Assembly: GCA_011526105.1 (NCBI GenBank)
Contig: WYAZ01000135.1
Location: 83,190-147,189 of the forward strand
DNA: 64,000 nucleotides
DNA from: Deltaproteobacteria bacterium
GTDB lineage: Bacteria > Myxococcota > Kuafuiibacteriia > Kuafuiibacteriales > Kuafuiibacteriaceae
Direction: 5' to 3'
In this document: positions 274-63,225 of the stretch, piece after piece
Layout: each line of letters opens with the position of its first letter
Numbering within the stretch: the stretch's first letter is position 1
Translations under genes and position numbers: made by a program
Notes under the pieces: model-generated
Told to the model about the DNA's origin: nothing
Seen by the model: the letters and a program-made list of their open reading frames with translations, nothing else
The model's database searches: none

Positions 274-308
274 ACCGGGTCCCGGGGCGCCCGGGGCGCC
301 CTGCCGTC

Positions 309-1645: not shown

Positions 1646-1681
1646 TTTCCCAGTCATCGAAGCACGCTGTACGATGCGCCG

Positions 1682-2956: not shown

Positions 2957-2976
2957 GCGCACGCGAGGCCTCGAGG

Positions 2977-9278: not shown

Positions 9279-9447
9279 GTTCTGGTCCCTCCCGACGGAG
9301 CTCCAATCTAGGGAGCTCTCGTACAGGGGCCGACATTTGCTCGATCGGCTAGAGCATCGTCAACCGAAGCTTGAGCTTCCGTTCTCGGCGTTCGAGCCGG
9401 CGGTCCAAGGAGGACTAAATCCGGTGTGATCACAGGCTATTGAACGA

Positions 9448-10131: not shown

Positions 10132-10141
10132 AGAGCGACCG

Positions 10142-48284: not shown

Positions 48285-48361
48285 CCTACCGCCGTCTGTG
48301 GGTTGTTGCACCTCGGTGCGGGCGCCTCTGCTGAGGAGCTTGGAGCGCGGTCGCATTGGGG

Positions 48362-49168: not shown

Positions 49169-49213
49169 GCCGAGCTTATCGGCGCGGGATGGGCGGATGG
49201 TCCTTACCGGTCC

Positions 49214-51202
49214 TTACCGAGGAGTCTGTCGGCGCAGAAGCTGATCCGCATAGAGCGAAGCCGGAACCAGGGCCGAACGTCGAGCGGAGCCTTCCAGGAA
49301 GTCCTCGGGTTCGGTGTGGAGGCTCGTATGACCGTTCGAGTTCAGCGCCCAGAACGGGTACCACTCCAGCTCCCACAGCGCGTCCGACGTGTCCGCGAGC
49401 TCCACGAACTGCACCTCTAGGTCGTTCCCAATCAGATACCCGTGGCCGTACTGCCAGGAGTAGAGGTCACCGCTCCCGTAGAGCCGCCAATACACGCTTT
49501 CGGTCACGGTGTGGCCGGCGCCGCTGCTCTCCGCGCGACGGTTGCCGCCCACCCAACCGTCGCTCAGCTCCGAGTTTTCGATCAGCACCGCCATCGCCAG
49601 TGAGTGGTGGAACTCGCTCCGGCAAGCCACCCAGGCTCCGTCGCACCGACTCCCTTCGCTGCTCGAGTCGCGGATGACGATGCCGCTGTTGCCGAAGTCC
49701 CAGTTGAAGCTGAAGTTGTGCCTCCCGCCGCGAAGCGTGGCTCTTTGGACCAACACCTCGTTGCTGCGCGAGATCTCGACGAGATAGCCGTTACCGCCCG
49801 ATCCTCGGTTTTGGGCCGGGCCCAGGGCGATGTCCTCGACCGTGATCTGCCGTGAGCCCACGACGGAGATCCCGTGGCTTTGAAGGTGCTGAGCCTCCGT
49901 GGGCGGGGACGAGAGTGGAGACGAGTACGTCCTCAGGCGTCGAACCCACCCGTCCTTGACTCCGCGGAAGGAGATGAGTGAGACGCGATTCTCGGATTGT
50001 GCCTGGCTGAGTTCGACCGCATTCGAGAGCGTGAGCGCTTCGACGCCGACCTCTCGAACCGTCCCCTCGATGCGCCTCAAGCTCGCTGAGTCGCGCACGC
50101 GCACCGGGTATCTCAAGGGCACGTCGAACGTGACTCGATATCCACCGGCACCCAAGGGGTGAATCGACATGACGGTGCGCCAAAAAATCGGGCGCCACTC
50201 TTCCGCCGCGAAGCCCCAGTAGGACTCCATGCCGTGTTCGGCGCGAAACGCGGCGCTGATGACGAAACCCACGGCCACCTCGTCGCCCTCGGACAGATCG
50301 CCCGCGTCTTCGATGTCGACCGAGAACTCTCGGCTGAGGCCATCCGCGCTCAACGCGATGGGCGCTCCAAAGATCGGCATACGTCCGAACTCGAGGTGAG
50401 CGTGATCGCTCATGCCGGCGGCGCTCGAGAAGTAGACGCGGGTCACATCCTGCCCGGCTCCTTTCAGGAGTACGTTCGACCCATTGACCTCCAGGCGACC
50501 ATCGACGCGGTATTCTCCGGCCGGCAGGTCGACCACCCCGCCCCCGGCGGAGATCGCGGCATCGATCGCGAGTTGGATGGCCGAGGTCCAGTCCGGACCC
50601 GAACCGTAGGCCGTGATGTCAAAGTGCGCGGTGGAGGGCTCAAAGATCTCGCGAAGGCCCCCGGCGTAGCCTGCGTAAGAGAAGTCATGAAGGAATCGGC
50701 CCTCGGCGTCCGTGGACCCCGGCGTCCAGTCGGCCGGATAGAGCGCGCTTCGCCAGCAAGAGTCCCCGTCACACGCTTCACAGCGCGAAGTGATTGGGTC
50801 GCAGCGCTCGGCGCCCGAGCAGTCGGAGTCCTCGCTGCACTCGGCGCACCGCTGGTTCGCGCATAGCGAGCCCGCCTCACACGGCTGCTGGCATTCACCC
50901 CCGCAACCGTCCGGTGCCCCGCCACAGGTTCCTTCGCAGCGCGGTACGCAGAGGTTGTTTCCTGCGTCTCGGGGAAGCTCGGGACCCGGAGGTTCGGACG
51001 CGTCCGATGGGGGTTCGATCTCGGCGTCTTTCAGCGGTCCGTGCGAGGCGTCGAAACTGGCGTCCGGCTGCCGATCCCTGCTGGCGGATAGGGCGTCGGC
51101 GGAGCAGGCCTCGAGGGCAAACAGGAGGCCCACCGCGACCGTCGCCGTATGCAGTCGCGGGCCCGCGGTCGAGGGGGGTCGCACCGGCATCACGATCATC
51201 AT
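49214..51202 (-). CDS. secreted pectate-lyase-superfamily / GH28-related beta-helix protein with Cys-rich N-terminal module
   Basis: Signal peptide. Cys-rich segment (CVPRCEGTCGG…CQQPCEAGSLCANQRCAECSEDSDC…). Then DFSYAGYAGG…ITAYGSGPDWTSAIQLAIDAAISAGGGVVDLPAGEYRV, the conserved N-terminus of Pectate_lyase_3-type beta-helix proteins. Confidence 0.7.
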   Translation of the reverse strand: MMIVMPVRPPSTAGPRLHTATVAVGLLFALEACSADALSASRDRQPDASFDASHGPLKDAEIEPPSDASEPPGPELPRDAGNNLCVPRCEGTCGGAPDGCGGECQQPCEAGSLCANQRCAECSEDSDCSGAERCDPITSRCEACDGDSCWRSALYPADWTPGSTDAEGRFLHDFSYAGYAGGLREIFEPSTAHFDITAYGSGPDWTSAIQLAIDAAISAGGGVVDLPAGEYRVDGRLEVNGSNVLLKGAGQDVTRVYFSSAAGMSDHAHLEFGRMPIFGAPIALSADGLSREFSVDIEDAGDLSEGDEVAVGFVISAAFRAEHGMESYWGFAAEEWRPIFWRTVMSIHPLGAGGYRVTFDVPLRYPVRVRDSASLRRIEGTVREVGVEALTLSNAVELSQAQSENRVSLISFRGVKDGWVRRLRTYSSPLSSPPTEAQHLQSHGISVVGSRQITVEDIALGPAQNRGSGGNGYLVEISRSNEVLVQRATLRGGRHNFSFNWDFGNSGIVIRDSSSEGSRCDGAWVACRSEFHHSLAMAVLIENSELSDGWVGGNRRAESSGAGHTVTESVYWRLYGSGDLYSWQYGHGYLIGNDLEVQFVELADTSDALWELEWYPFWALNSNGHTSLHTEPEDFLEGSARRSALVPASLYADQLLRRQTPR

Positions 51203-51390
51203 CGGGCGATCGTCCTGGCATGTGGCTTACAGCGGCTTACGCCCCGCCGAGGGGCCTTGACGGGGGAGACCCACGCTGCGGGTCTCATGGAGGCCGCTGC
51301 GCGCACGAGCAGAGCTGCCGAAGACGCGGTGAGGGCACTCGACTCCGTCGAGCAGTTGACCGCCGTTCTGCGGTCGCGTCAGATGCGTCC

Positions 51391-52980
51391 GTGCGGCGAC
51401 TCGGTTGGGCTGCGGCGCTCTGGCTGGCTCTGGCAGGCGGTTGCGGCGGTGGAGAGCAGTTCCTCGCTCTGCCGGAGCTGGGTCTGGACGTGCTGTTTGT
51501 GTTTGGGCTCGACGACGAGGGCCAAACCCTCGAGGTCGCGGGTCCACTCGTCTTGGACGAGTCCACGACCGGAGACCGCTCTGCCGTGCTGAGCGCGAGC
51601 GAGCTGCGCGTGGTCGGATGGTCGCACGACGCGCTGGGTGACTCGACCGTGCTCTACGATCGCGCGCGCGCGAGTCAGATCGAACTCGGCTTTGCTTCTG
51701 CCCCCTCGTGCCAGCCGGACGAGCTCGATGCGCAGTCCATGAGCATTCTCACCGCTGCTCCAGCCTCGACGGAGACTCATACGCTCACATTGGATGGTCT
51801 GCACAACCCGGTCGAGTCCTCCCCCGACCTCGTGCTCCGCCTGCCGGTCGATCTCGATGCCTGCGTTCCGGAGAGCCGTGGTCTCCTTCGACCCTTCGCG
51901 GATCGCGAGTTCCCGATCTCGGTGGGCTCGGAGCTTCTCGGACATCCGGTGAGCCAACCGGATCTCAGCTTTCGAGACGTCCATTTGCTCGACGACGGAC
52001 GATTGCTCGCGCTCAGCGCCAAGTGGCTGTTTCTGTTCGAGACGGGTCGCACCTTCCGCGCGGAGCCGTCGCACGCCCTCCTCGTGCCCGAAACCACGTT
52101 CCAAGCATTTGCCGTTGACGACGACACCTCGCGACACGGCGACCAACCCCTCGTGACGATCGCTGGCACGCGAGATCTGGAACCAGTCTCCGGTCTAGTC
52201 GTGGATGTCCGCGTCACCGCTTCTGGATTCGAGGTGCTCGGGACCAGCTCGATCAGTTCACGCATGGACGAGCTGGTAGTTCGTCAGCTCGACGGACGTC
52301 TCGTTGGTGTCGCCGTGGCGGGGTTCGTGCTCACGAGGGTCGGCCTGGGCGCCGAGGTCGAACTCCTACCAGCCCCATGGATGGACATCGACAGCTTTGC
52401 GCAGCTCGGTCTGACGGGCGACCCGGAGCATCCATACGTGGCTTCGGCTGGGAATCGGGGTGGCGTCCTCCTCGGGGACACGGACGCGAGGGTGTGGACG
52501 GCCGTGCCCGCTCGGGGCTTGGACATCAATGCCCGCGTTCGCGCGCTCTCCAAGGTCGAGGAAGGGGGGCGCGAGGTTTGGGCGGGGACCTCGAACGGGC
52601 AGGTCTTCCGCTGGGAGATGGATCGGGATGTCTGGGAACAGGTGAAGCTCCCAATTTCCCCCACGCTCGCCGCTTGTGCTCTGCCTGAGGGTTGCGGCTA
52701 CTTCAAGATACGCCCCACGGTTCGAGGCTTCGAGTTCTTCGAGCGCCGCGGGGTGCCGCGCGTTCTCATCAGCCTGTCCGAATGCGCGGGCCTCGTTGAT
52801 CTCCGTCTCGACGGAAAGTGCGCCGGGCCCATCCACATCGAAGGACGTCCGCTCGATGAGCTGACCTGGGTGCCCGAGCTCCAGAGCTTCCTTGATTTCC
52901 GGGCGACTCACTTCGCGAACGGTCAGCTCGTGGTTGCTTCTCAGGAAGGTGGTGTTTATGTCCTCGATGTCGAACCCTGA
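51391..52980 (+). CDS. hypothetical lipoprotein
   Basis: Start placed at in-frame GTG 51391, giving (M)RRLGWAAALWLALAGGC (Arg-rich n-region plus lipobox). The upstream part of the ORF (50794-51390) is R-rich and overlaps the opposite-strand gene. Confidence 0.55.
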   Translation: MRRLGWAAALWLALAGGCGGGEQFLALPELGLDVLFVFGLDDEGQTLEVAGPLVLDESTTGDRSAVLSASELRVVGWSHDALGDSTVLYDRARASQIELGFASAPSCQPDELDAQSMSILTAAPASTETHTLTLDGLHNPVESSPDLVLRLPVDLDACVPESRGLLRPFADREFPISVGSELLGHPVSQPDLSFRDVHLLDDGRLLALSAKWLFLFETGRTFRAEPSHALLVPETTFQAFAVDDDTSRHGDQPLVTIAGTRDLEPVSGLVVDVRVTASGFEVLGTSSISSRMDELVVRQLDGRLVGVAVAGFVLTRVGLGAEVELLPAPWMDIDSFAQLGLTGDPEHPYVASAGNRGGVLLGDTDARVWTAVPARGLDINARVRALSKVEEGGREVWAGTSNGQVFRWEMDRDVWEQVKLPISPTLAACALPEGCGYFKIRPTVRGFEFFERRGVPRVLISLSECAGLVDLRLDGKCAGPIHIEGRPLDELTWVPELQSFLDFRATHFANGQLVVASQEGGVYVLDVEP

Positions 52981-53410
52981 GCCTGGGTGTCGATGGGTTG
53001 TCTTCGGCGCTCTCGTGATGGGCTTCGTCGCCGCAGCCTGCGGCCGAACCGAGGTCTTCTCCTCCTCCGTGCCTCCCACCGATGCTGGCACCGAGCCTGT
53101 CTGTTTGGAACTCTGCTTGGAGGTCGAGCAAGAGCTGCGAGATATCTTCGGGGTGGCCGATCCCTGCACCGAACGAGCCTGGGCGAAGCGCGCCTTCGAC
53201 TGCGAAGCCTGCGCTCAGCTCTTCGTCGACTTCTATGGCGTAGCCCTCGAGACCTCGGCTTGTCGCGATTGTCATGACGAAGTCCCAAACGTCTACTGCG
53301 GTACTCCGCCACCAGCCTGTCCGCTCGGCTCGCGTCCCGGCACCAGCGGCCACTCAAAGTGCGGGCCCAGCTTCACCGGCGAGTGTGTGCCCTGTTCGAC
53401 CAAAGACTGA
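52958..53410 (+). CDS. small Cys-rich secreted lipoprotein (150 aa, about 14 Cys)
   Basis: Start refined to ATG 52958 with AGGAAGG 8 nt upstream (MSSMSNPEPGCRWVVFGALVMGFVAAAC). The mature part carries paired Cys (CLELC, CEAC, CRDC, CGTPPPAC, CGPSFTGECVPC). It overlaps the upstream gene end by 23 nt. Confidence 0.5.
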   Translation: MSSMSNPEPGCRWVVFGALVMGFVAAACGRTEVFSSSVPPTDAGTEPVCLELCLEVEQELRDIFGVADPCTERAWAKRAFDCEACAQLFVDFYGVALETSACRDCHDEVPNVYCGTPPPACPLGSRPGTSGHSKCGPSFTGECVPCSTKD

Positions 53411-53478: not shown

Positions 53479-54294
53479 GTGCCGCCCGTGTCGCGGCCCG
53501 AGAGCACATCCGCGTGTCCGAGCTCCGGAGTCGGCCCGAGGCAGATCAGCACCCCCGAGAGCCTGGCGCGCATCGGCCTCGGGCTCTTCTGCACCGGGGT
53601 GCTGGTTCTGACCATGACGCCGCTGCTCATCATCCTCTTGCCGTTTCGGTCGGCGCGCGTTCGGGTCACCAACGTCTTTGGGGTGTGGATCGGCCGCTCG
53701 GTGATGGCCTGCGCGGGATGCCCAGTCACGGTCGAGGGTCGCGAGAACCTGAGTGCGGACCGACCTGCGATCTATGCGTGCAACCACACCTCCACGCTCG
53801 ATGCCTTCACCACCATCTGGCTCACGCCCATGGGAACCGTCGGCGTCGCCAAGAAGGAGGTTCTCTATTACCCCTTCTACGGACAGGCTTGGTGGCTCGC
53901 CGGGCACATCTTCCTCGATCGTGGTCAAAGCGCGCGCGCCAAGGCTTCCCTCACCCGGGCCGCGAAGGTCATCAAGCGACTTGGGCTGCATGTTTGCATT
54001 CTCCCCGAAGGAACCCGCTCCCGAGATGGACGTCTACTCCCATTCAAGAAGGGCATCGTGCATCTCGCGCTCGAGACCAGGCTGCCGATCGTTCCAATGG
54101 TGACCATCGGCGCGCAGGGAACGTGGGACCGAGATGGACTTCGGCTGCGTCCGTCGCCGATTCGCATTGTGTTTCTGCCGCCCATCTCCACGGAGGCCTG
54201 GACGCAGGAGGGGATGAGCGAGCAGATCGACGCGATCCGGCGCCCGTTTCTCGAGACGCTCCCTGCGGGTCAGCAACCTCAACCGTCGAGCTAG
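53479..54294 (+). CDS. plsC: 1-acyl-sn-glycerol-3-phosphate acyltransferase (LPLAT/PlsC family)
   Basis: N-terminal TM helix, HX4D motif (NHTSTLD), FLDRG, and the PEGTRS motif. Confidence 0.8.
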   Translation: MPPVSRPESTSACPSSGVGPRQISTPESLARIGLGLFCTGVLVLTMTPLLIILLPFRSARVRVTNVFGVWIGRSVMACAGCPVTVEGRENLSADRPAIYACNHTSTLDAFTTIWLTPMGTVGVAKKEVLYYPFYGQAWWLAGHIFLDRGQSARAKASLTRAAKVIKRLGLHVCILPEGTRSRDGRLLPFKKGIVHLALETRLPIVPMVTIGAQGTWDRDGLRLRPSPIRIVFLPPISTEAWTQEGMSEQIDAIRRPFLETLPAGQQPQPSS

Positions 54295-55268
54295 GCCGGA
54301 GCGGCCGCGAAGCTCGTCGTGAAGCTCTGGTCGTCGAAGCGATCGAGGCTCTGCTCCCAGCGGTACTGCGGCCACAGGAGGCTCACCGAGCGTTGCTTCG
54401 GCCGATACACCGCGGTGTAGAGCGTTCCGTAACCTTGCTCGTGGCGAGTGCCGAAGGCAGGCGCTTCGAGGAAGCGTTGCACGAACCGGGCTGCGGTCTC
54501 CGTGGGGTCGGAGAGGCGAAGGCTGAGCGTGGAGAGGCGCTCGGCGCTGCGCGTCGCCTTTGCGTACGCGCTCCACTCCACCGCTTCCTGATGGTTCGTG
54601 GCCACGAAGTTGCGCGTGACCTGCGCGCCCCGGTCCGGAGTCACGAACACCGTGGCGTGGTCGACCGAGGCGTCCAAAAGCGTGATGCTGTAGCTCATGT
54701 GCGAGGGAACGCGCTGCAGGACCTCGGTCGCCTCCCCGGTCGTGTCGCAGGTCTCCAGGACGTAACGCAGGATGAGCGGAATGCCGAAGCCGTCCCCCAC
54801 CTGCTTTCGGCCCCCGAACGACAGAGAGACACACAGCCCCGCGTCGTTGACGCCGTCGAGGAGGCCCCATAGACAGTCGCTCATGCCGAGCACCCGCCTT
54901 CTCCAGTGCGTTCGGACGAGCAGCTTCTCCCAAAGCCTCGGAGCGTAGTCGTAGTTTCGCACCAGCATGGGCTCGCTCCGCGTCCACGCTGCCTGTGAAC
55001 ACGCAGTGAGGTACGGAGGCGGGCAGTACAGAGCGAGCCCGCGCGCGGCGAGGTCGGAGCCACCGGCGAGCTCCATCAGCCGCCCATAGGTCTCCATGAG
55101 CTCGGGCATGTGCCTCTGCAACGCGCGCCTCGAAGCGAGGTATGTCGGCCGCGCCCGGTCCCCCTCTTGAAGAAACCACTCGCGGTACTCGGGCCAGGAC
55201 GCCTCGAAGAACCGAGCCCACTTCGGGCCCGGCTTTGGCTCATCGAGCGTGTCGACCACTACCTGCAC
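54291..55268 (-). CDS. Ntn-hydrolase, C45 / linear-amide C-N hydrolase-like (acyltransferase/amidase)
   Basis: A candidate N-terminal-nucleophile Cys sits at about residue 90 (…YCPPPYLTACSQAAW). DGVNDAGLCVSLSF resembles the DG(M/L)NE.GL motif of the C45/choloylglycine-hydrolase families. The family call is moderate. Confidence 0.6.
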   Translation of the reverse strand: MQVVVDTLDEPKPGPKWARFFEASWPEYREWFLQEGDRARPTYLASRRALQRHMPELMETYGRLMELAGGSDLAARGLALYCPPPYLTACSQAAWTRSEPMLVRNYDYAPRLWEKLLVRTHWRRRVLGMSDCLWGLLDGVNDAGLCVSLSFGGRKQVGDGFGIPLILRYVLETCDTTGEATEVLQRVPSHMSYSITLLDASVDHATVFVTPDRGAQVTRNFVATNHQEAVEWSAYAKATRSAERLSTLSLRLSDPTETAARFVQRFLEAPAFGTRHEQGYGTLYTAVYRPKQRSVSLLWPQYRWEQSLDRFDDQSFTTSFAAAPA

Positions 55269-55278
55269 GGGCTTGGTC

Positions 55279-56766
55279 CTAAAGGAGCTTGAAGTTCCCG
55301 GCTTCGGCCACTCGGGTGGCCACGGCGGCTTGCTCTTTGCCGATGGGGGACCACTCGTACTGTGAACGAATGGCCTGCGTCCATTTGCGGGCGCGGTCGG
55401 TCAGCTGGAAGTCGTCCGTCATCAGCCGGCCCGGCGTAATCAAGATCCCGAGGTCAGCCCCCTCGTAGAAGTAGTCTCCGACCTTGCTGATCCGCAGAAA
55501 GAACGCCTCGTCCTCGCTCTCGACCGTGCGTCGGTGGGTCTGCACGCGCACGAAGTCCGCGCCGCCATCCGGCCGCATGCGCCAGACCCCAGAGGGGGGC
55601 GCCTTGGTGATGAGGCCCACCTGATCGGTGACGTGCTTGATGACGAGCTGACCCCAACCGTCGATATACTCCGGTTGTGACCAGCGCTCGTTGAGTTCCT
55701 CCACGTCGAGCTCGAAGTCCACGTCCGAGAACTCGAGCAGGTGAAACAGGAACAAGGGAGCGTCCGCGTGCGCGAAGGCCGCCAGGTTCGTCATGGCGCT
55801 CGCGCCGGTGATCCGCGGGTTCACCTCGCCCAGATAGAGCGTGTTGGTGTCGAGGTCGCGCAAAAAATCGAGCTCGAAGTAGCCGCGGTAGCCGAGCTTG
55901 CGCAGCGACTCGCCGAAGGCCGCGGTCATCTGCCTCGCCTTCTTGCGGACCGCCGCCGGGAAGGACTCCGGAAGGACCTCGTTGCCGCACCAGCCCCCCT
56001 TGTACGGGGTCAGCTCCTTGAAGCCGACCAACTCGGTCATGAGCGGGCCCACGATCGTGCCCTGACGGGTGACGCAGGCCTCGAGCGCGGCGCCACGGCA
56101 CCTTATGCGCTTCATGATCTTTAGCTCGGGGGCCTCGATGATGTCTTTCGAGTGCCGGTCGAAGTCCGCTTCGTTGGAGATGAAGAAGGTGGTGTGTCCG
56201 GAGTCGCCGAACGCAGTTTGGATCACGAGATCGTTGCCGAGTTTGGAGGCGACCTTTCGCAGCTCGTTGTAGTCCTTTACGCGGCCGAGCACGTTGGGGA
56301 CCGAGGCGATGCCGGCTTCATCGCCCAGCCGAGTGGCGGAGATCTTGTTGTCCACCTTGGCCCGCAGCGAGGCGGGCGGAAAGCAAATCTCCAGATCGAG
56401 TTCCTTCGCGATCTCCTCGGTCTTCTCATCGAAGAACAGGAAGACCGATCGGGGCCTCTTGCCCCCCTTCTTGCTCCCTTCGATGAGATCCACCACCGCT
56501 TTGTGCTGAAGGAGGTAGTTGTTGATGTCCTCGATGCTGGTGAAGGGCTCGTGTGTCACCTCGGGCGGCGAGAAGACGTTGGGATGATGTCCATCGAAGC
56601 AGTCGATGTAGTTGATGTATCGAAAGTTACGGACCCACTCATCGATGCCCATCAAGTTGAAGCTGGTCGCGCTCACGAAGAACGTGGGCGTCTCGTTTCG
56701 GTGGAAGTACCGCCGGATGTCCGAGATGCCGTGCAGCTTCTCTCGCTTTTTGGTGTTCTTGCTCAT
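55279..56766 (-). CDS. ATP-grasp superfamily ligase with pre-ATP-grasp N-terminal domain; substrate unknown
   Basis: ATP-grasp Mg/ATP motif …YFELDFLRDLDTNTLYLGEVNPRITGAS… (E-x-N-P-R). The central region has VIQTAFGDSGHTTFFISNEADF. Composition is K/N/F/Y-rich with native GC3-rich codons. Confidence 0.75.
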   Translation of the reverse strand: MSKNTKKREKLHGISDIRRYFHRNETPTFFVSATSFNLMGIDEWVRNFRYINYIDCFDGHHPNVFSPPEVTHEPFTSIEDINNYLLQHKAVVDLIEGSKKGGKRPRSVFLFFDEKTEEIAKELDLEICFPPASLRAKVDNKISATRLGDEAGIASVPNVLGRVKDYNELRKVASKLGNDLVIQTAFGDSGHTTFFISNEADFDRHSKDIIEAPELKIMKRIRCRGAALEACVTRQGTIVGPLMTELVGFKELTPYKGGWCGNEVLPESFPAAVRKKARQMTAAFGESLRKLGYRGYFELDFLRDLDTNTLYLGEVNPRITGASAMTNLAAFAHADAPLFLFHLLEFSDVDFELDVEELNERWSQPEYIDGWGQLVIKHVTDQVGLITKAPPSGVWRMRPDGGADFVRVQTHRRTVESEDEAFFLRISKVGDYFYEGADLGILITPGRLMTDDFQLTDRARKWTQAIRSQYEWSPIGKEQAAVATRVAEAGNFKLL

Positions 56767-56777
56767 CTGTTCTCCTT

Positions 56778-59612
56778 TTATGATGGTCGTTCCGCTTCGA
56801 GTCCTACCGGGGCCTTGAGCCTCGCCAGTGCGCCGAGCACGGAGTCTTTGAAGATTCGAATACCGAGCCCCGGCTTCATGCCGTGGATCTCTTTGACGTC
56901 CAGCGCCAACAGGAAGCTCACGATCTCTTTCGTGATCACCTGGCCCGGGACCAGCACCGGGAAGCCGGGCGGATAGGGCGTGATGAATGAGGCGGAGACG
57001 AGTTCCCGGCGCTCTGCGACGCGGGCCAAGAGCGAAGCATCGAACGGGATGAACTCGCAGGATTCCTCGTCGTAGGCCTGGAAATAGGCGCGGCGGATGT
57101 CTCCTTCGGGGGTGGTGCTCTTGGGGTCAGGCAAGAAGATCCGGTGGAAGCGGCTGAAGTTCGGCAGCGGTGGGAGTTCCTCCGTGAGTGATGCGACCTT
57201 GCGGTCGAAGGCTGCGTGCTCGGCCGCGCTGGCATGCTCGAGTGTGCGCGCGAGGTCGGTCGCGATGTCCGTCAGCACCTTGACGAGGTGAGCGATTGTT
57301 CCTCGGGTCATGCCGATGTGAATCAGGAACAGCACGGTGTTGCGCGACGTCTTGTTAATGTGGATGTCGTACTTGTTCATGAGCAACCCCTTGAAGGAGT
57401 CGCCGTCGTAGCCTGAGCGGCCGACGTGAAGTGTGACGCGGGTGGGGTCGAGCACGAATTCGTCACCCGTCCAAGCATGTTCGACTGGGCCGTGCCGGGT
57501 GATGGGATCCCAATAGCGATGGATGCCCGACGGTCGATGTTCTTCGGGGATCATGTCTTTGGGACCCAGCACTCGGAAGAACCTTTCGAGCAGCGGGTCT
57601 TCGCTGATGCGCTCCCGCAAGGTCATGGCGAGCTCGAAGGACTCGCCGACGAGGTCGAGACCCTCGAGTTCTACTTGGCGGCGACCCACGTCGAGCGAGG
57701 CGAGGATCTGGTAGTTCGGCGACGTCGACGTGTGGGTCATATACGCCTCGTGAAATGGCTCCTCGGCCCGGCGTTCGAACTCGGAGTCGCGCACATGGAT
57801 CATGGAGCCCTGGCGCAGCGAGGTCAGGGTCTTGTGCGTGGACTGCGTGGCGTAGACGCGAACTCGGGCGTGTTCGGGGTCCGGCAGGAGCTGCGCCATC
57901 CATCGCGGGTCGCTCGGCTCGGGCGTGCCAAATGCAGCCCGCCACGCGTCATACGTGGCGCGATAGGCGTCGCTGCGCAGTTCACGCTCCAACCTGCGCG
58001 CCGCGTGCATGGCGGTCCGCTGACGGAGCACCGGCGTGAAGCGGCCGTAGGCGAACCAGGCCTCGTCCCAGAGGAACAAGATGTCGGGCTTGATGGCCAG
58101 GATCTCCTTCATCACCCGGTAGGGGTCGTAGGTGATGCCGTCGAAGGTCACGTTCGTGAGCAGCAACAAGCGGACGCGGTCCAGCTTGCCTGCGGCTTTG
58201 AGTTCGAGGAGTTGACGTTTGATCTCATCGAGCGCGACGCCCCCATACATGGAGTATTCGGGCAGCGGATACGGATCGAGGTAGATGGGTGACGCGCCGG
58301 CCAGGATCACCGCGTAGGGGTGAGACTTGTGACAGTCGTGGGAGAGCAGGACGATGTCGCCCGGCTGGATCAAAGCCTGCATCACGATCTTGTTCGCAGT
58401 GGACGTTCCGTTCGTGACGAAGAAGGTTCGCTCCGAGCCAAAGGCTCGCGCGGCCAACTCCTGCGCTCGCTTGAGTGACCCGGTGGGCTGCAACAAGGAG
58501 TCGAGGCCCCCGGTGGTCGCGGAGGTTTCTGCAAAGAACAGCTGCGATCCGTAGAAGTCGCCGAAGTCACGAATCCACTTGGACTTTGCGATTGTGCGTC
58601 CGCGGGAGACGGGAAGCGCGTGAAACATCCCCGTCGGCTTTTCGCTGTAGCGCCGGAGCGCGTCGAAGAACGGAGTCTCGAAGCGGTCATGCACGCCCTT
58701 CAAGAAGCTCACGTGCTGATCCTGAAGGTCCTCGGCTTGATAGAAGAGCCGACGAAACGGGCTCTCTCCGCGGCCGATCACACTCTCGATGGGGGCGTCG
58801 GTCACGCGGTAGAGGTCGATCTCGGGGCGAAGGTCTTTGAGCAGACGGCCGAGCTCCGCGGTGCGGGCGCCGGGCATCAGAGCGGCGAGTCGATCGCGAT
58901 CTTCACCCAGGAGGTGATACAGGGGCTCGAGCAGGTCCGCGTCCGCATTGCCGGAGAACGGAAAGCTGTAGCGCGTGACGACGGCTGCGATGCCGGGATT
59001 GGCGAGCACCGCGAGGACGGCGTCCTCGAAGCTGCGTGCGACCACCAGTTCATAGATGAAGCGATCGTTGTCGCGCCGGAAGCCTCGGAGCTGCTGGCGG
59101 AGCTCCCGCTCTTCCTTGATCGAGATGTCATCCACGACCAGCAGTTCGAAGTAGAGACGGTCAGCTTCCTCGACCGGCTCGTCCATGGCCGTTTCCCTGA
59201 TGCCCACGCCGTCCCCAGTGAGGAAGTCGAGGTAGTCGTGGGCTCGGACCGAGGCCAGGTCGAGGCGCCGATACGCACCTGAGCTGCGCAGACGCGCGAC
59301 GCGTATGGAGATGGTGGCCAGGTCCTCGAACTCGCCTTCGTCCAGGAGACGCCCGAGGTGCGCGAGGATCCGCATGCCGGGGAAGGAGAAGTACCCCTCG
59401 AGCTGCTCGAGGAATCCGATGGCCTCCCGGATGCCCGTCTGAAGTAGGTTCGCCGACGCATCCTCGCGCTGGGTGCGCCGAAGCCGGCGGGCCAGGTCGC
59501 GGAGCCGGTTCCAGGTGTCAGCGCGAAGCCGGGCGATGTTGTGCAGGGTGAGCGGGATGGCTGGTGCTCCGCTCGCGTCCAGGGCGCTCAGGGGTGTGCT
59601 TGGTCTCTTCAC
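56778..59612 (-). CDS. large (biodegradative-type) Orn/Lys/Arg decarboxylase, PLP-dependent fold-type I, with N-terminal wing domain
   Basis: 944 aa. PLP-lysine motif YATQSTHKTLTSLRQG (S-x-HK). Length and domain order resemble AdiA/LdcI/SpeF-type decarboxylases. Confidence 0.85.
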   Translation of the reverse strand: MKRPSTPLSALDASGAPAIPLTLHNIARLRADTWNRLRDLARRLRRTQREDASANLLQTGIREAIGFLEQLEGYFSFPGMRILAHLGRLLDEGEFEDLATISIRVARLRSSGAYRRLDLASVRAHDYLDFLTGDGVGIRETAMDEPVEEADRLYFELLVVDDISIKEERELRQQLRGFRRDNDRFIYELVVARSFEDAVLAVLANPGIAAVVTRYSFPFSGNADADLLEPLYHLLGEDRDRLAALMPGARTAELGRLLKDLRPEIDLYRVTDAPIESVIGRGESPFRRLFYQAEDLQDQHVSFLKGVHDRFETPFFDALRRYSEKPTGMFHALPVSRGRTIAKSKWIRDFGDFYGSQLFFAETSATTGGLDSLLQPTGSLKRAQELAARAFGSERTFFVTNGTSTANKIVMQALIQPGDIVLLSHDCHKSHPYAVILAGASPIYLDPYPLPEYSMYGGVALDEIKRQLLELKAAGKLDRVRLLLLTNVTFDGITYDPYRVMKEILAIKPDILFLWDEAWFAYGRFTPVLRQRTAMHAARRLERELRSDAYRATYDAWRAAFGTPEPSDPRWMAQLLPDPEHARVRVYATQSTHKTLTSLRQGSMIHVRDSEFERRAEEPFHEAYMTHTSTSPNYQILASLDVGRRQVELEGLDLVGESFELAMTLRERISEDPLLERFFRVLGPKDMIPEEHRPSGIHRYWDPITRHGPVEHAWTGDEFVLDPTRVTLHVGRSGYDGDSFKGLLMNKYDIHINKTSRNTVLFLIHIGMTRGTIAHLVKVLTDIATDLARTLEHASAAEHAAFDRKVASLTEELPPLPNFSRFHRIFLPDPKSTTPEGDIRRAYFQAYDEESCEFIPFDASLLARVAERRELVSASFITPYPPGFPVLVPGQVITKEIVSFLLALDVKEIHGMKPGLGIRIFKDSVLGALARLKAPVGLEAERPS

Positions 59613-59733
59613 GTGGTCTTCCTTTCGAAGCCGGCGTTCCCTCCGCGCGAGCGAGCCTTCTCAGCGGCCCCAGTGTGGCCAGGAACGTTCACTTGGGAGA
59701 TGTGGTGTCGTCGATGTCGAATGCCGTCGCGCC

Positions 59734-61062
59734 TCACGGAGCGCTCCCGAGGATCTCTTCCCCGATGATGTCGAGTCCGCGGTCGAGGTCCTCGTCGCTG
59801 ATGACCAGCGGTGAGAGGACTCGGATGACGTTCCCGTGCACCCCGGCGGAGATGACGACCAATCCTCGCGCGAGCGCTTGGGATAAGACCCTCGTCGTCA
59901 GCAGCGTGGCCGGCCTCTTCGGATCGCGATCCTCGACGAGCTCCATGCCCACCATGGCGCCGAGCCCGCGAACATCACCCACCGAGGAGCACTTCGATTG
60001 CAGCGCGCGAAATCGCTCGAACACCTTCGCCCCGATTCGTTGGGCTCGCGCGTTGAGCTTTTGCTTCTCCATCAGATCGATGGTGGCGAGGGCAGCGGCG
60101 CAGGCGACCGGATTGCCGCCAAAGGTGCTACCGATGGTGCCGGAGACCGCTGCGTCCATGATCTCTGCGCGCCCGATCACCGCGGAGATGGGCAGTCCGC
60201 CACCCAGAGCCTTGGCCCAAGTGGAGATGTCGGGGGTGACGCCGTAGTGCTGGTAGGCGCCCCAGTGTCCGGTGCGACCAAAACCCGTCTGCACTTCGTC
60301 GAAGATGAGCATGGTGCCGTGTGTATCGCAGATGCGCCGGAGACCTTCGAGGTAGGCCTTGGGTGCAGGGATGAAGCCGCCTTCTCCGAGCACGGGTTCG
60401 ATGATCACCGCGGCGAGGTCTCGAGGCGACACGTGGGTCAACAACGCGGTCTCGAAGCGCGCGAGCTCCCGGTCGACGAAGCTCTGGAGGTCGAGACCGT
60501 CCCCGTCGTGATAGTGATCAGGGAAGGGCAGGCGGTAAATTTCGGGGGCGAAGGGCCCGCACCCCCGCTTGTAGCCAACCTTTGAGGTGAGCGTCATGCC
60601 GAGCAGCGTTCGTCCGTGGAATGCGCCGGAGAAGCAGATGACGCCCGAACGTCCGGTCGCCTGCCTCGCGATCTTGATCGCGTTCTCGACCGCTTCCGCG
60701 CCCGAGTTGAGGAGCATCGCCTTCGTTGCATCACCGTGCGGCAGAAGCTCCACCAAGCGCTCGCAGAGCGCGATGTAAGGCTCGTAAGTGACGACGTGAA
60801 AGCTGGCATGGAGCACCCGCTGCGCCTGCGCGGAGATCGCCTCGATGACTTCGCGCGGCGCGTGACCCGCGTTGGCCACCCCGATGCCGCCGGCAAAGTC
60901 GATCAGTCGCTCGCCCTCGAGGTCGAACAGGTGGGCGCCGGCGCCTCGAGCGACCGTTCGATCCGTGGCCCTCGGAATGCCCACAGGAACCACCCGGTCT
61001 CGTCGCGCGAGCAGGCTGGCCGAGCCCGCAGGGGTCTCCGGGTTTACACCTATGCCGTTCAT
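59734..61062 (-). CDS. class-III aminotransferase (GABA / omega-amine : 2-oxoglutarate transaminase-like)
   Basis: ICFSGAFHGRT, LIFDEVQTGFGRTG, and the PLP-Lys region DISTWAKALGGG. Confidence 0.85.
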   Translation of the reverse strand: MNGIGVNPETPAGSASLLARRDRVVPVGIPRATDRTVARGAGAHLFDLEGERLIDFAGGIGVANAGHAPREVIEAISAQAQRVLHASFHVVTYEPYIALCERLVELLPHGDATKAMLLNSGAEAVENAIKIARQATGRSGVICFSGAFHGRTLLGMTLTSKVGYKRGCGPFAPEIYRLPFPDHYHDGDGLDLQSFVDRELARFETALLTHVSPRDLAAVIIEPVLGEGGFIPAPKAYLEGLRRICDTHGTMLIFDEVQTGFGRTGHWGAYQHYGVTPDISTWAKALGGGLPISAVIGRAEIMDAAVSGTIGSTFGGNPVACAAALATIDLMEKQKLNARAQRIGAKVFERFRALQSKCSSVGDVRGLGAMVGMELVEDRDPKRPATLLTTRVLSQALARGLVVISAGVHGNVIRVLSPLVISDEDLDRGLDIIGEEILGSAP

Positions 61063-61159: not shown

Positions 61160-61756
61160 GTGAGTGTGCACTCTGCTAAACAGTCGGTCGAACCCCAATC
61201 CGACCTGTTCGAGGCCGAGGTCGGACCTCGCCTGAAGGCCATCCGGGAGCGTTTTGGGCTCTCTCAGCGGGAGCTAGCGCGCCGGGCCGGGGTGACCAAC
61301 GGCACCGTCTCGCAGATCGAACAGGGCCAAGTGAGTCCCTCGATCGCCTCCATGAAGAAGCTGGTCGCAGCTTTGTCCCTGAGTCTCGCCGACTTCTTCA
61401 CCCTCGACCTCGAGCGGATCCGTACCCCATTTCATGCAGCCAGCGAGCTCGTCGAGATTGGGAGTGGAGCGCTCTCGCTGAGACTCGTCGCGGGTCGTGT
61501 TCCCAACCGACATCTTCAGGTCCTGCACGAGCGCTACGCGCCGGGCGCCGACACGGGGTCGGAACTCTTGTCGCATCCGGGTGAAGAGTCGGGCGTCGTG
61601 GTGCGGGGCAACATCAAACTCAGCGTCGGCAACGAAGAGCGGACACTCGGCCCCGGAGACGCCTTCTACTTTGACAGTCGCATTCCACACAGGTTTCGAA
61701 ACGAAGGGGAGGTCGAGTGCGAGATCGTCAGCGCATCGACCCCACCCAGTTTCTAA
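61160..61756 (+). CDS. XRE-family HTH plus C-terminal cupin transcriptional regulator (PuuR-like)
   Basis: HTH LKAIRERFGLSQRELARRAGVTNGTVSQIEQG. The C-terminal cupin segment GEESGVVVRGNIKLSVGNEERTLGPGDAFYFDSRIPHRFRN. Confidence 0.8.
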   Translation: MSVHSAKQSVEPQSDLFEAEVGPRLKAIRERFGLSQRELARRAGVTNGTVSQIEQGQVSPSIASMKKLVAALSLSLADFFTLDLERIRTPFHAASELVEIGSGALSLRLVAGRVPNRHLQVLHERYAPGADTGSELLSHPGEESGVVVRGNIKLSVGNEERTLGPGDAFYFDSRIPHRFRNEGEVECEIVSASTPPSF

Positions 61757-63225
61757 GAGATTGGAGCAGTCCCTTGGCCAAGTTCAACTCAGCGCTCATC
61801 GAGCATTACACAGGATATGCGGGAGGGCGTTTTCTCCCGTCCGCCGGGAAGTCGACCTTCAAGGTGATCGACCCAGCGAGCCAGGAGATCCTGGCCGAAC
61901 TGCCGAGCTTTGGTGGGAGCGAGACCTCGGCCGCGGTCGAGTCCGCGGTCCCTGTCCTCGAGGATCCCGCACCCCTCGAGACTCGAGCTCGCTGGCTCAC
62001 CGAGATCGCCCGCGCGCACGTGGACAACCGCGACGAACTCGGCCGGATCGTCACGCTCGAAAACGGAAAGCCGCTGGCCGAGGCCAAAGGGGAGATCGAC
62101 TACGCCGCTGCCTTCTATCGAGACGCTGCCCAGCGCCTCGACGTCTTGCGCCCTCGCAAGCTCAAAGAGCGACCCAAGGGCTTGGACTGGACGGTGTACT
62201 CGCGGCCGGCTGGCGTCGCCGGGCTGATTACGCCCTGGAACTTCCCGGTGGCGATGCTGGCGAAGAAGCTCTCGGGTGCGATCGCGGCGGGCGCGCCGGC
62301 GGTGGTCAAGCCGGCGGAGAAGACCCCGCTGTCATGCATCGCCTTGTTTCATCTCCTACACCGCTTGGGCCTCCCGCCCGGCATGGTGAACCTCGTGTTT
62401 GGAGACGCACCCGCGATCGGACGTGTGCTGTGTGAACATCCGGCGGTCAGGGTGTTGAGCTTCACCGGTTCCACCGCGGTCGGGAAGCTGCTGTCCGCCC
62501 AGGCCGCGCCCCATCTGAAGCGCATGTCGCTCGAGCTCGGCGGCAACGCGCCGTTCATCGTGTTCGACGACGCGGACTTGGATCTCGCGGCGGACCAGCT
62601 GATGACCAGCAAGTTTCGAGCGACCGGGCAGACCTGCGTCTGCGCGAACCGAGTGTTCGTGCAGGATTCAATCGCGGCGGCGTTCACGGACCGGGTGGTG
62701 GAGCGGGTGCGTGCGCTCCAGGTTGGGCACGGCCTCGAAGAAGGAGTCACGGTCGGTCCGCTCATCGATCTCGCGGCCTTTCAGAAGGTTTCCAGCCTCG
62801 TCGACGATGCACTCGGGGCCGGAGCCCAGGCCCTGACGGGCGGCCGCACGCCTCCGCCGGCGCCGGACAAGGGGTGCTTCTTTCCGCCCACCGTGCTCAC
62901 CGGCGTTCGAAAGGGCATGCGTATCCTCGGCGAGGAGGCCTTTGGGCCGACCGTGCCGATCGCTCGCTTTACCGAGGAGTCAGAGATCGTGCGAATCGCC
63001 AACGACACCGAGTACGGCCTCGCGGCCTATGTGTTCACCCGCGATCCCGCGCGCGCGGAGCGGGTGATTTCGCGCCTGCGTTTTGGGCACGTCGGCCTCA
63101 ACAGCGGTACTGGTCCCACCCCCGAGGCTCCGTTTGGTGGGATGAAGCACTCGGGCCTCGGCCGGGAAGGTGGAGAAGAGGGCCTGCTCGAGTACGTCGA
63201 GCTTCAGACCGTTCCGCATCCGTAG
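61717..63225 (+). CDS. NAD(P)-dependent aldehyde dehydrogenase (succinate-semialdehyde / aminoaldehyde dehydrogenase-like)
   Basis: ITPWNFPVAM, ELGGNAPFIVFDDADL (catalytic Glu), and GQTCVCANRVFV (catalytic Cys). The start is uncertain; it overlaps the regulator gene by about 40 nt. Confidence 0.85.
   Translation: MRDRQRIDPTQFLRDWSSPLAKFNSALIEHYTGYAGGRFLPSAGKSTFKVIDPASQEILAELPSFGGSETSAAVESAVPVLEDPAPLETRARWLTEIARAHVDNRDELGRIVTLENGKPLAEAKGEIDYAAAFYRDAAQRLDVLRPRKLKERPKGLDWTVYSRPAGVAGLITPWNFPVAMLAKKLSGAIAAGAPAVVKPAEKTPLSCIALFHLLHRLGLPPGMVNLVFGDAPAIGRVLCEHPAVRVLSFTGSTAVGKLLSAQAAPHLKRMSLELGGNAPFIVFDDADLDLAADQLMTSKFRATGQTCVCANRVFVQDSIAAAFTDRVVERVRALQVGHGLEEGVTVGPLIDLAAFQKVSSLVDDALGAGAQALTGGRTPPPAPDKGCFFPPTVLTGVRKGMRILGEEAFGPTVPIARFTEESEIVRIANDTEYGLAAYVFTRDPARAERVISRLRFGHVGLNSGTGPTPEAPFGGMKHSGLGREGGEEGLLEYVELQTVPHP

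Follow-up and report, generated by a model that had tools for sequence, protein, structure and literature searches.

An ATP-grasp protein conserved between a predicted long-form glutamate decarboxylase and a C45-family amidohydrolase: a candidate carboxylate-amine ligase

The locus at 55279..56766 (minus strand) raises the question of what a 495-aa ATP-grasp protein does when it is encoded between a decarboxylase and an amidase-type enzyme. The window analysed is the whole 64-kb stretch of DNA that holds this gene. The ORF is a genuine gene, and the ATP-grasp core with an EVNPR Mg motif described in the initial annotation was confirmed, both by the three-domain ATP-grasp fold of the protein and by the invariance of E314, N316 and R318. 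The same annotation had placed the protein in an unclear clade. This stands in so far as no characterised member was found, but the family itself is catalogued: the NF005096 profile gave 753.3 bits against a curated cut-off of 684, with residues 4–488 on profile positions 9–492 of 493, i.e. a full-length match. As judged from this match, the protein is an ordinary member of an existing family rather than an unclassified ligase. NF005096 (CDD PRK06524) is an equivalog model with the title ‘biotin carboxylase’; a literature search returned no publication on the NF005096/PRK06524 family and no experiment behind this name. The nearest homologues were from the Myxococcota (Polyangiaceae and Kofleriaceae), and identity across phyla was 57–74%.

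The active site was compared with that of biotin carboxylases by alignment to Rhizobium etli pyruvate carboxylase (2qf7) and among 20 homologues. The EVNPR Mg/phosphate-binding motif of the ATP-grasp C-domain (E314-V-N316-P-R318; 55813..55827, minus strand) was invariant among the homologues, as were K141 and E298, and these two residues together with E314, N316 and R318 align with pyruvate carboxylase residues. On this alignment the predicted Mg/ATP site is intact. The glycine-rich nucleotide loop (Q183-T-A-F-G-D-S-G-H-T-T-F-F; 56182..56220, minus strand) was recognised from the alignment and the same 20 homologues. Its invariant Gln183 takes the position of the usual second ATP-binding lysine, presumably K159 of biotin carboxylase, and the same glutamine was present in the distant relatives P0132, P0136, P0173, P0195 and P0236; nucleotide handling may therefore be atypical.

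At two carboxylation positions the residues were replaced. An invariant Ala322 stands at the glutamate of the biotin-carboxylase N-x-R-I-Q-V-E-H motif, which we take to be E. coli E296, the proposed catalytic base, so that EVNPR is followed by I-T-G-A-S here and by I-Q-V-E-H in biotin carboxylases. The lysine of the biotin-carboxylase R-N-Q-K-V-V-E motif, presumably E. coli K238, aligns with Val264 in an invariant G-G-W-C-G-N-E-V. The accC and pyruvate-carboxylase models scored 21–32 bits against cut-offs of 597–1114, a domain search found no biotinyl domain in the protein, and no biotin carrier or carboxyltransferase gene was among the recurrent neighbours in 80 genome and 13 metagenome loci. 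With two carboxylation residues replaced and these partner genes missing nearby, the name ‘biotin carboxylase’ is unsupported, and this identity was rejected. It is extremely improbable that the protein is nevertheless a biotin carboxylase or another bicarbonate-activating carboxylase, as its database title says: among proteins of known function, its best matches by sequence are indeed the biotin-carboxylase domains of pyruvate, propionyl-CoA and 2-oxoglutarate carboxylases, and PurK was second among the fold matches, but the similarity to biotin carboxylases is weak (E 1e-7 to 1e-3) and lies mainly in the ATP-binding half, while the replaced residues and the recurrent neighbours argue against carboxylation.

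Structural comparison placed PylC first among the fold neighbours, which also included PurK, BesA, PGM1, PurT and L-amino-acid ligases, all at 9–14% identity and none standing out. Since these neighbours are all equally distant, the acyl donor and acceptor are not readable from the fold. This agrees with the initial view that specificity could not be read from sequence, the closest relatives of known function reaching E~1e-7 at best. The reported lack of a RimK/Ddl/GshB-type signature was likewise borne out, as RimK/LysX/GshB/Ddl-type ligases had no specific sequence or closest-fold tie to the protein, and glutathionylspermidine synthetase (GspS) was not among its fold or sequence matches. Because the family name is backed by neither residues nor partners, comparison with known ATP-grasp enzymes gave no clear assignment to a characterised housekeeping enzyme. 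No additional domain was recognisable in N-terminally extended distant relatives (P0262, P0122, P0126 and others). Gene fusion was considered as a clue and discarded, the 1,636-aa ORF in locus L023 being an out-of-frame ORF-caller artefact; in L020, a relative of L019 (1,427-aa ORF), the genes are separate. PADLOC returned zero anti-phage defence matches for the ATP-grasp protein and its two neighbours.

The gene upstream (56778..59612, minus strand) encodes a long-form, four-domain PLP decarboxylase of 944 aa, previously taken for a basic-amino-acid decarboxylase. Its match to Rv2531c of Mycobacterium tuberculosis (947 aa; PDB 9n0n/o/p) scored 776 bits to 9n0n/9n0o, at 43–48% identity. Rv2531c was reported in 2026 to decarboxylate L-glutamate in vitro and in vivo and to be inactive on lysine, ornithine and arginine; H405, K406, R576, T606, R718 and N731 were implicated in its function, and an arginine was proposed to bind the gamma-carboxylate (PMC13506015). 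H405, K406, K570, R576, T606 and N731 are identical in the neighbouring decarboxylase and R718 is replaced by lysine; by residue mapping, its PLP lysine is K594 (nt 57831–57833, minus strand) and its R600 (nt 57813–57815, minus strand) corresponds to R576. Among 71 decarboxylases adjoining members of the ATP-grasp family, the implicated residues were invariant with single conservative exceptions at K406 and T606, and the R718 position was K or R throughout. On the best current evidence, the neighbour is therefore predicted to be an L-glutamate decarboxylase (GAD), and the basic-amino-acid identity was set aside in view of the 776-bit match, the conserved residues and the Rv2531c biochemistry. 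With a decarboxylase of this glutamate type, the amine at hand would be GABA, not a polyamine. Of the earlier suggestion that an amino acid is ligated to an amine, the ligation is kept, a carboxylate-amine ligase being the most reasonable chemistry.

The surrounding genes are consistent with this substrate. The first gene of the minus-strand operon (59734..61062) encodes a class-III aminotransferase resembling GabT and PuuE, i.e. a GABA:2-oxoglutarate transaminase, with best PDB matches to E. coli GabT (1sf2, 371 bits) and PuuE (6wj8) and 485–494 bits to the NCBIfam GABA-transaminase models, slightly below their cut-offs. It is separated from the decarboxylase by merely 121 nt, and the spacers further down are 11 nt (decarboxylase to ATP-grasp) and 10 nt (ATP-grasp to the C45 gene). 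Divergently transcribed are a PuuR-like XRE-HTH and cupin regulator (61160..61756, plus strand; HTH_3 and Cupin_2), with 152 bits to the PuuR model (below its cut-off of 211), and a succinate-semialdehyde-dehydrogenase (SSADH)-like aldehyde dehydrogenase (61717..63225, plus strand; Aldedh 499 bits), whose best NCBIfam model was SSADH TIGR01780 (491 bits, below the cut-off of 646). The regulator occupies the same position in related loci of the Myxococcota and Planctomycetota. Taken with the glutamate-type decarboxylase, these GabT-, SSADH- and PuuR-like genes indicate that the locus is, by predicted gene functions, a GABA-shunt operon. No tRNA or Rfam family was found in the 64-kb window, and a promoter and terminator scan of 53.4–63.4 kb gave a result no better than shuffles.

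Downstream of the ATP-grasp gene lies a C45-family autoproteolytic Ntn amidohydrolase/acyltransferase of 325 aa (54291..55268, minus strand), in accordance with the amidase first proposed there (NCBIfam C45_proenzyme 163 bits, cut-off 85; Pfam AAT 113 bits). Its nucleophile is predicted from conservation to be Cys90 (nt 54999–55001, minus strand), with autoprocessing expected at Ala89|Cys90, and C90, R104, N105 and D107 were each conserved at at least 95% in 65 orthologues, a residue set that we take to be of the penicillin-V acylase/bile-salt hydrolase type and not of the class-II glutamine amidotransferase type. Among characterised relatives, isopenicillin-N acyltransferase cleaves a delta-(alpha-aminoadipoyl) amide. 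Drosophila Tan, which is homologous to isopenicillin-N acyltransferase, cleaves beta-alanyl-dopamine and beta-alanyl-histamine (PMC1285064). By analogy, this shared cleavage of omega-linked aminoacyl amides would count for an amide-cleaving role here. A second amidase, a CN-hydrolase with an intact E-K-C triad, was found within 8 kb in 63 of 69 loci, its place in the module being upstream of the decarboxylase. It was closest to Nit2 omega-amidase (2w1v, E 2e-23), with weaker similarity to N-carbamoylputrescine amidase (AguB); the substrates of Nit2 and Nit1 are omega-amides of 2-oxoglutarate or succinate. A tblastn search of the whole window for this gene gave no match, and several other loci likewise lack it.

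These neighbours bear on two alternatives. One is a route like the E. coli Puu pathway, in which the decarboxylase would make a diamine from ornithine, lysine or arginine, the ATP-grasp protein would attach an acyl group to one of its amino groups (gamma-glutamylation, the PuuA reaction, being an example), oxidation of the other end would fall to the transaminase and aldehyde dehydrogenase, and the C45 enzyme, in the role of PuuD, would free GABA or 5-aminovalerate on the way to succinate or glutarate. The gene classes at the locus match the E. coli puu cluster nearly one to one (ligase, amidase, GabT/PuuE-like transaminase, aldehyde dehydrogenase, PuuR-like regulator), the source databases call the decarboxylase an ‘arginine decarboxylase’, and the weak resemblance of the CN-hydrolase to AguB points the same way. 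Against it, the sole characterised long-form decarboxylase of the group is active on glutamate and inactive on the three basic amino acids, its implicated residues, including the proposed gamma-carboxylate arginine, are invariant in the triad decarboxylases, the CN-hydrolase is nearer to Nit2, and neither agmatine deiminase nor a polyamine transporter recurs among the conserved neighbours; we regard this route as clearly unlikely. The other alternative is an amidoligase that receives its ammonia from a dedicated donor, on the model of carbamoyl-phosphate synthetase or of NAD synthetase in its glutamine-dependent form: the CN-hydrolase, the C45 enzyme or both would act as glutaminase, the ATP-grasp protein would amidate a carboxylate, and by-product glutamate would be removed by the decarboxylase and the GABA shunt. 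CN-hydrolase domains do serve as glutaminases in NAD synthetase, the gene is close by in most loci, and this arrangement would account for an attached glutamate-consuming enzyme. It is nonetheless improbable, given that the present locus and several others have no CN-hydrolase at all, that the conserved C45 residues are presumably not those of a class-II amidotransferase, and that no candidate acid for amidation is evident.

To determine how far the arrangement is conserved, 80 genomes from the Myxococcota, Planctomycetota, Gemmatimonadota, Alpha- and Gammaproteobacteria, Bacteroidota, Acidobacteriota, Chloroflexota and Verrucomicrobiota were surveyed. The decarboxylase was directly upstream of the ATP-grasp gene in 65 of 72 loci and the C45 gene directly downstream in 65 of 73; both were present in 57 of 67 genomes, spanning more than eight phyla, with usual spacers of 0–40 nt. 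Cultured carriers of the ligase gene include Novipirellula, Sulfitobacter litoralis and Paracoccus onchidii. The present locus has the same triad, with an Rv2531c-type gene upstream and a C45 gene downstream on the same strand. In a sister clade (40–49% identical; 13 metagenome loci), the triad was kept in genomes of 32–63% GC with different other neighbours, which suggests functional coupling rather than inherited synteny. The three genes form an inseparable set, even where the pathway genes around them differ. Relative to the window proteins, median identity was 63% for the ATP-grasp protein and 52% for both the decarboxylase and the C45 enzyme, and conserved ATP-grasp positions were distributed over the full length in the 20 homologues. 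A secondary-metabolite L-amino-acid or peptide ligase of the RizA, BacD or PGM1 type making a specialised dipeptide has very little probability. The family has a very wide distribution and high conservation between phyla, its genes have primary metabolism around them, and further biosynthetic or export genes do not recur beside them, which is not the pattern of a natural-product cluster.

With the fold, Mg/ATP site, family membership, neighbour classes and conserved gene order established, we infer a common pathway for the three proteins, together with its acid, acceptor amine and physiological purpose. The reading that we tentatively prefer, at somewhat less than an even chance, is that the NF005096 protein is a carboxylate-amine ligase and the fixed partner of the long-form GAD and the C45 enzyme inside a GABA-shunt operon. 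The ligase, with Mg-ATP, would phosphorylate the omega-carboxylate of a glutamate-derived acid, the candidates being glutamate (at its gamma-carboxyl) and GABA (at its sole carboxyl), and an amine would capture the acyl-phosphate to give a gamma-glutamyl or 4-aminobutanoyl amide. The C45 enzyme would then hydrolyse or transfer this amide, and the Nit2-like omega-amidase, in most genomes, would clear deaminated or oxidised forms of such amides. The main flow would run from GAD through the GabT-like transaminase to the SSADH-like dehydrogenase, with the PuuR-like regulator in control, and the ligase and C45 pair would form an ATP-driven conjugation and deconjugation branch that feeds, buffers or diverts the flow from glutamate through GABA to succinate. 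In the E. coli Puu pathway, which passes through gamma-Glu-GABA, a ligase and an amidase are placed around GABA, and in animals a decarboxylase is followed by the ATP-grasp carnosine/homocarnosine synthase and a hydrolase. For one catabolic operon to encode both a ligase and an amidase for the same bond seems futile, unless there is a purpose to the conjugate.

The C-terminal tail of the ATP-grasp protein allows a different interpretation. It ends in A-E-A-G-N-F-K-L-L (55282..55308, minus strand), and the conserved motif [G/A]-x-[F/Y]-K-hydrophobic-hydrophobic-COOH was found in 78 of 80 genome loci, carried by a variable linker rich in Pro and Ala, in a region with pLDDT below 50 in the structure model. 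A similar F-K tail occurs in most sister-clade members, in which the lysine is mostly kept and is replaced by threonine or serine in two. The tail may be a docking motif or may carry an acceptor lysine, and the extreme conservation with a flexible tail is no less compatible with a protein-protein or protein-substrate role than with one on small molecules. A protein-level role, which is unlikely but carries an appreciable share of the probability, would have the ATP-grasp protein either dock by its F-K tail on the decarboxylase or the C45 enzyme and modify or regulate it, or acylate its own tail lysine and use it as a swinging-arm carrier; erasure or release would be the part of the C45 enzyme. 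It draws on the terminal motif, on the possible acyl-acceptor nature of the Thr and Ser replacements as well, on the inseparable triad with the ATP-grasp protein as its most conserved member, conserved over its whole length, on ligation onto a lysine epsilon-amine by the top fold match PylC, and on LysX/LysW as a precedent for ATP-grasp carrier systems. The hysteresis, Hill number of 4, K0.5 of 509 mM and unusual Mg2+ requirement of Rv2531c (PMC13506015) could also be explained by a missing partner. Weighing against it, the C45 enzymes with an established function have small-molecule substrates, an exergonic decarboxylation would gain nothing evident from having its substrate tethered at the cost of ATP, the K-to-T/S replacement is known from two related metagenome contigs, and the mycobacterial decarboxylase makes GABA in vivo without either partner. 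The Rv2531c gene stands alone, with no ATP-grasp or C45 neighbour, so that the ligase is dispensable for glutamate decarboxylation as such; the Rv2531c papers do not discuss gene neighbours, including an ATP-grasp/C45 context.

In the most specific form of this idea, to which we give little credence, the ATP-grasp protein would be its own carrier: the gamma-carboxyl of glutamate would be ligated to tail lysine K493, the tethered substrate decarboxylated by the long-form enzyme, and GABA released by the C45 enzyme, so that glutamate decarboxylation would be ATP-driven and protein-tethered. If true, this would explain the free-glutamate K0.5 of about 0.5 M and the long lag of this decarboxylase type, as well as the inseparable three genes and the strong conservation of the ligase.

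The long-form ‘cloaked’ glutamate decarboxylase was not recognised until 2026 and was described as a stand-alone enzyme with puzzling kinetics. In bacteria other than mycobacteria, the ATP-grasp and C45 genes almost always accompany its gene, and a Nit2-like amidase usually joins them. This points to what seems to be an undescribed branch of glutamate/GABA metabolism, widely distributed among soil and marine bacteria. The three-protein system is a concrete target for reconstitution, and it may account for the unusual properties of the decarboxylase. A systematic annotation error is also apparent, the ATP-grasp ligase being misnamed ‘biotin carboxylase’ in thousands of public genomes.

Among known systems, biotin-carboxylase domains such as 2qf7 have in common with the ATP-grasp protein its core, a lysine of the K141 type and the Mg-phosphate residues E/E/N/R. 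The ATP-grasp protein differs by an extra conserved N-terminal region, a C-terminal tail and the replaced bicarbonate/base residues (Q-V-E-H to T-G-A-S; the R-N-Q-K lysine to V264). PylC, PurK, BesA, PGM1, PurT and the L-amino-acid ligases are about 130 residues shorter and have other gene contexts. Whereas the mycobacterial Rv2531c gene is solitary, its orthologues in most other phyla are tied to the two partner genes. The LysW/LysX amino-group carrier has a logic similar to that of the self-carrier reading, with the carrier here built into the ligase. The E. coli Puu system (PuuA, PuuD, PuuC, PuuE and PuuR) likewise has a ligase and an amidase flanking GABA formation, a transaminase, an aldehyde dehydrogenase and a PuuR-type regulator, but PuuA is a glutamine-synthetase-type and PuuD a class-I amidotransferase-type enzyme, neither homologous to the proteins here, and Puu begins at putrescine whereas a glutamate-type decarboxylase would give GABA directly. 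The glutathionylspermidine synthetase/amidase Gss also joins an ATP-dependent amide synthetase to a cysteine amidase acting on the same bond, with a regulated conjugate pool, but it is one bifunctional protein whose amidase domain is of the CHAP type and whose synthetase comes from a different lineage, without sequence or fold prominence here. In the carnosine/homocarnosine system, a decarboxylase makes an omega-amino acid that the ATP-grasp carnosine synthase ligates to an amine or amino acid and a hydrolase sets free again, a likeness of pathway logic. Of the Drosophila pair Ebony and Tan, the former is NRPS-like, and the latter is a C45 enzyme that shares its Pfam family with the amidase of this locus (PMC1285064).

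The ATP-grasp open reading frame was confirmed at 55279–56766 on the reverse strand. It runs for 495 codons from an ATG, an AAGGAG ribosome-binding site lies 11 nt past the stop of the upstream gene, and the E-V-N-P-R motif of the initial annotation was located at residues 314–318. The K/N/F/Y-rich composition with native GC3 described there was also borne out: K, N, F, Y and I made up 24 % of the protein, against 12–18 % in eight neighbouring genes, and the GC3 of 0.86 matched the high GC3 of these neighbours. The bias therefore does not mark foreign DNA; it represents residues kept constant against genome GC pressure.

Pfam gave weak generic ATP-grasp matches only, and the dedicated full-length NCBIfam model NF005096 (PRK06524, ‘biotin carboxylase’) matched at 753 bits (cut-off 684). 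The search recovered over 6,600 homologues; those from the Myxococcota, Planctomycetota, Gemmatimonadota, Alpha- and Gammaproteobacteria, Bacteroidota, Acidobacteriota, Chloroflexota and Verrucomicrobiota were 57–74 % identical to the window protein, and cultured Rhodobacteraceae were among the proteobacterial carriers. Conservation is unusually high throughout this large family, with a mean column identity of 71 % in a cross-phylum alignment of 20 sequences. The window gene is a typical member of this catalogued family and hence not a new protein family. Literature searches on NF005096/PRK06524 found no paper, and the family, whose function is uncharacterised, carries a wrong name. A role for its members as natural-product ligases is highly improbable.

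Similarity to genuine biotin-carboxylase domains was weak (best E 1e-7) and lay mostly in the nucleotide-binding half. The carboxylase N-x-R-I-Q-V-E-H is replaced by an invariant N-P-R-I-T-G-A-S, in which Ala322 occupies the position of the Q-V-E-H glutamate, the proposed catalytic base of the carboxylase, and the lysine of the carboxylase R-N-Q-K-V-V-E aligns with Val264, within the invariant G-G-W-C-G-N-E-V. No biotin-carrier or carboxyltransferase gene recurred near the ATP-grasp gene in 93 loci. The weak similarity, swapped residues and absence of these neighbours leave the name unsupported, and a true carboxylase is scarcely credible. The Mg/phosphate residues E298, E314, N316 and R318, together with K141, were intact, so an active ATP-dependent enzyme would be expected from the sequence. 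In place of the second canonical ATP-binding lysine the family has an invariant glutamine, Gln183 (V-I-Q-T-x-x-G-D-S-G-H-T-T-F-F; nt 56182–56220, reverse strand), with an equivalent also in distant relatives, down to 30 % identity; its position, before the glycine-rich ATP loop, is presumably that of BC K159.

The upstream gene (56778–59612, reverse strand) encodes a long-form decarboxylase of 944 aa with an Orn/Lys/Arg-decarboxylase Pfam domain, labelled arginine decarboxylase in the source databases and initially read as a basic-amino-acid decarboxylase. By far its closest solved relative was Mycobacterium tuberculosis Rv2531c (PDB 9n0n/9n0o/9n0p; 776 bits, residues 25–934), a ‘long form’ with an additional N-terminal domain (PMC12329521). 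According to a 2026 PNAS study (PMC13506015), Lys, Orn and Arg are not substrates of Rv2531c, which decarboxylates L-glutamate in vitro, is the source of most GABA in vivo and behaves peculiarly: it requires Mg2+, lags for at least 10 min, and has a Hill number of 4 and a K0.5 of 509 mM. The Rv2531c residues implicated by that study, H405, K406, R576, T606 and N731, and the PLP lysine are identical in the window decarboxylase, with R718 replaced by Lys, and they varied little or not at all among 71 decarboxylases adjoining NF005096 ATP-grasp genes; the partner decarboxylases of the family were 43–48 % identical to Rv2531c. This biochemistry and these conserved residues argue against a basic-amino-acid substrate. 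They are likewise at odds with a Puu-like polyamine route, which matches the set of gene classes at the locus but is unlikely.

The first operon gene (59734–61062) encodes a GabT-like transaminase (371 bits to E. coli GabT, with PuuE next-best), and a PuuR-like regulator and an SSADH-like aldehyde dehydrogenase are divergently transcribed from the operon. The amidase-type gene initially noted downstream was upheld as a C45 autoproteolytic Ntn hydrolase/acyltransferase (54291–55268; C45_proenzyme 163 bits, cut-off 85), whose Cys90, Arg104, Asn105 and Asp107 showed at least 95 % conservation in 65 orthologues. From these identities, the locus is a GABA-shunt operon with two additional enzymes, not a polyamine locus. 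The 3′ end of the C45 gene overlaps a convergent PlsC-type 1-acylglycerol-3-phosphate acyltransferase gene (53479–54294, forward strand) by 4 nt (54291–54294), and no terminator-like structure was found between the two. Beside the operon, 46935–53410 holds a run of apparently secreted or low-complexity protein genes with little or no family assignment, including a trypsin-like protease (48362–49168) and a 662-aa Cys-rich protein (49214–51202), both on the reverse strand; genes of this run also occur on other contigs bearing the exact ATP-grasp sequence of the window.

Neighbours were mapped in 80 fetched genome loci, each count being limited to loci with sufficient flanking sequence. The decarboxylase lay directly upstream of the ATP-grasp gene on the same strand in 65 of 72 loci and the C45 gene directly downstream in 65 of 73, both being present in 57/67; ATP-grasp/C45 spacers were mostly 0–40 nt. 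A fourth module gene, beyond those initially annotated, encodes a carbon-nitrogen (CN) hydrolase of ~300 aa whose E-K-C triad is intact and whose best solved relative is the omega-amidase Nit2 (2w1v, E 2e-23). In 63 of 69 loci it was found no more than 8 kb away, in most cases as the gene just before the decarboxylase. The GabT-like transaminase occurred within 8 kb in half (33/66), mainly in Myxococcota, Planctomycetota, Gemmatimonadota and Bacteroidota. No CN-hydrolase copy was detected by tblastn in the entire 64-kb window, where its usual site in related loci, between transaminase and decarboxylase, is a gap of only 121 nt (59613–59733). One other locus, of a Myxococcota MAG with an otherwise full gene set likewise had no CN-hydrolase. 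Loci of this kind, the window included, weaken the reading of the ATP-grasp protein as a glutamine-dependent amidoligase, which is very unlikely.

In Rhodobacteraceae a TAXI-TRAP transporter was often upstream, as in L073 (5–3704), where a binding protein and fused permease precede the module; ORFs of equal size and position were seen in L050 (Oceanibacterium hippocampi; 38–3947) and L078 (14–3865). A Thiothrix MAG (L049, 2206–4068) carried an MscS-type mechanosensitive channel there. These proteobacterial transport genes may hint at solute import or osmotic shifts.

The order decarboxylase, ATP-grasp, C45 was retained in a sister clade from metagenomes of 32–63 % GC, whose ATP-grasp proteins were 40–49 % identical and scored 494 bits, below the NF005096 cut-off. 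Its other neighbours differed (L085 1625–4353; L089 353–3249; L091 131–2861; L094 3607–4218 and 9510–11711; L086 506–2683), comprising small TPR proteins and a ~700-aa fusion of a urea-transporter (UT) membrane domain with an M23 peptidase domain, and CN-hydrolase and GabT genes were absent from these loci. On a Mycobacterium avium contig (L099) the orthologous decarboxylase gene (8001–10853) has pepQ, efp and nusB as neighbours, and none of the ATP-grasp, C45 and CN-hydrolase genes lies within 8 kb of it. Its retention among other neighbours marks the triad as an old unit with tight coupling. As the solitary mycobacterial gene shows, the decarboxylase can work without its two partners, which are either dispensable or lost in the mycobacterial lineage.

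In 78 of the 80 loci the ATP-grasp protein ended in a Pro/Ala-rich linker, itself variable, and a final [G/A]-x-[F/Y]-K motif with two hydrophobic residues at the carboxyl terminus, the window version being AEAGNFKLL (55282–55308, reverse strand); pLDDT was below 50 in the predicted structure of this tail. Most sister-clade members had [A/G]-[S/N]-[L/I/V]-K, with Thr or Ser for Lys in two. This tail, the exceptional conservation across the entire protein and the unusual kinetics seen in the decarboxylase that stands alone leave some room for a protein-level role in docking, regulation or as a built-in carrier lysine. Such a role is nevertheless rather doubtful, and its carrier version quite improbable.

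The obligatory association of the ATP-grasp protein with the recently recognised long-form glutamate decarboxylase and a C45 hydrolase, joined in most cases by a Nit2-like amidase, appears to be undescribed, and is not mentioned in the 2026 decarboxylase paper (PMC13506015). The module is a concrete, testable addition to the just-opened question of this decarboxylase, and exposes a widespread annotation error in the naming of NF005096 proteins.

Our tentative preference, held at somewhat below even chances, is that the ATP-grasp and C45 enzymes act as a pair in a conjugation/deconjugation branch on the glutamate to GABA to succinate route. The fold and intact site indicate acyl-phosphate chemistry with an amine as nucleophile. 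The constant partners of the ligase, a glutamate-type decarboxylase and an amide hydrolase, suggest that the bond is a glutamate or GABA amide; the ligase would form a gamma-glutamyl or 4-aminobutanoyl amide, for the C45 hydrolase to cleave. Omega-linked amides are the type of bond suggested by the known reactions of enzymes related to the neighbours. Isopenicillin-N acyltransferase splits a delta-(alpha-aminoadipoyl) amide, and the substrates of the hydrolases Nit2 and Nit1 are omega-amides of 2-oxoglutarate. BesA, a maker of gamma-glutamyl dipeptides, was among the top fold matches of the ATP-grasp protein. The C45 enzyme Tan, a homologue of isopenicillin-N acyltransferase, splits beta-alanyl amines (PMC1285064). 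Conservation of the Arg proposed for gamma-carboxylate binding in Rv2531c, a role that rests on modelling only (PMC13506015), mildly suggests that the decarboxylase sees free glutamate; the ligase would then act either before it, forming a reservoir, or after it, on GABA. The logic of the proposed branch is shared with the E. coli Puu pathway and with the carnosine/homocarnosine system of animals.
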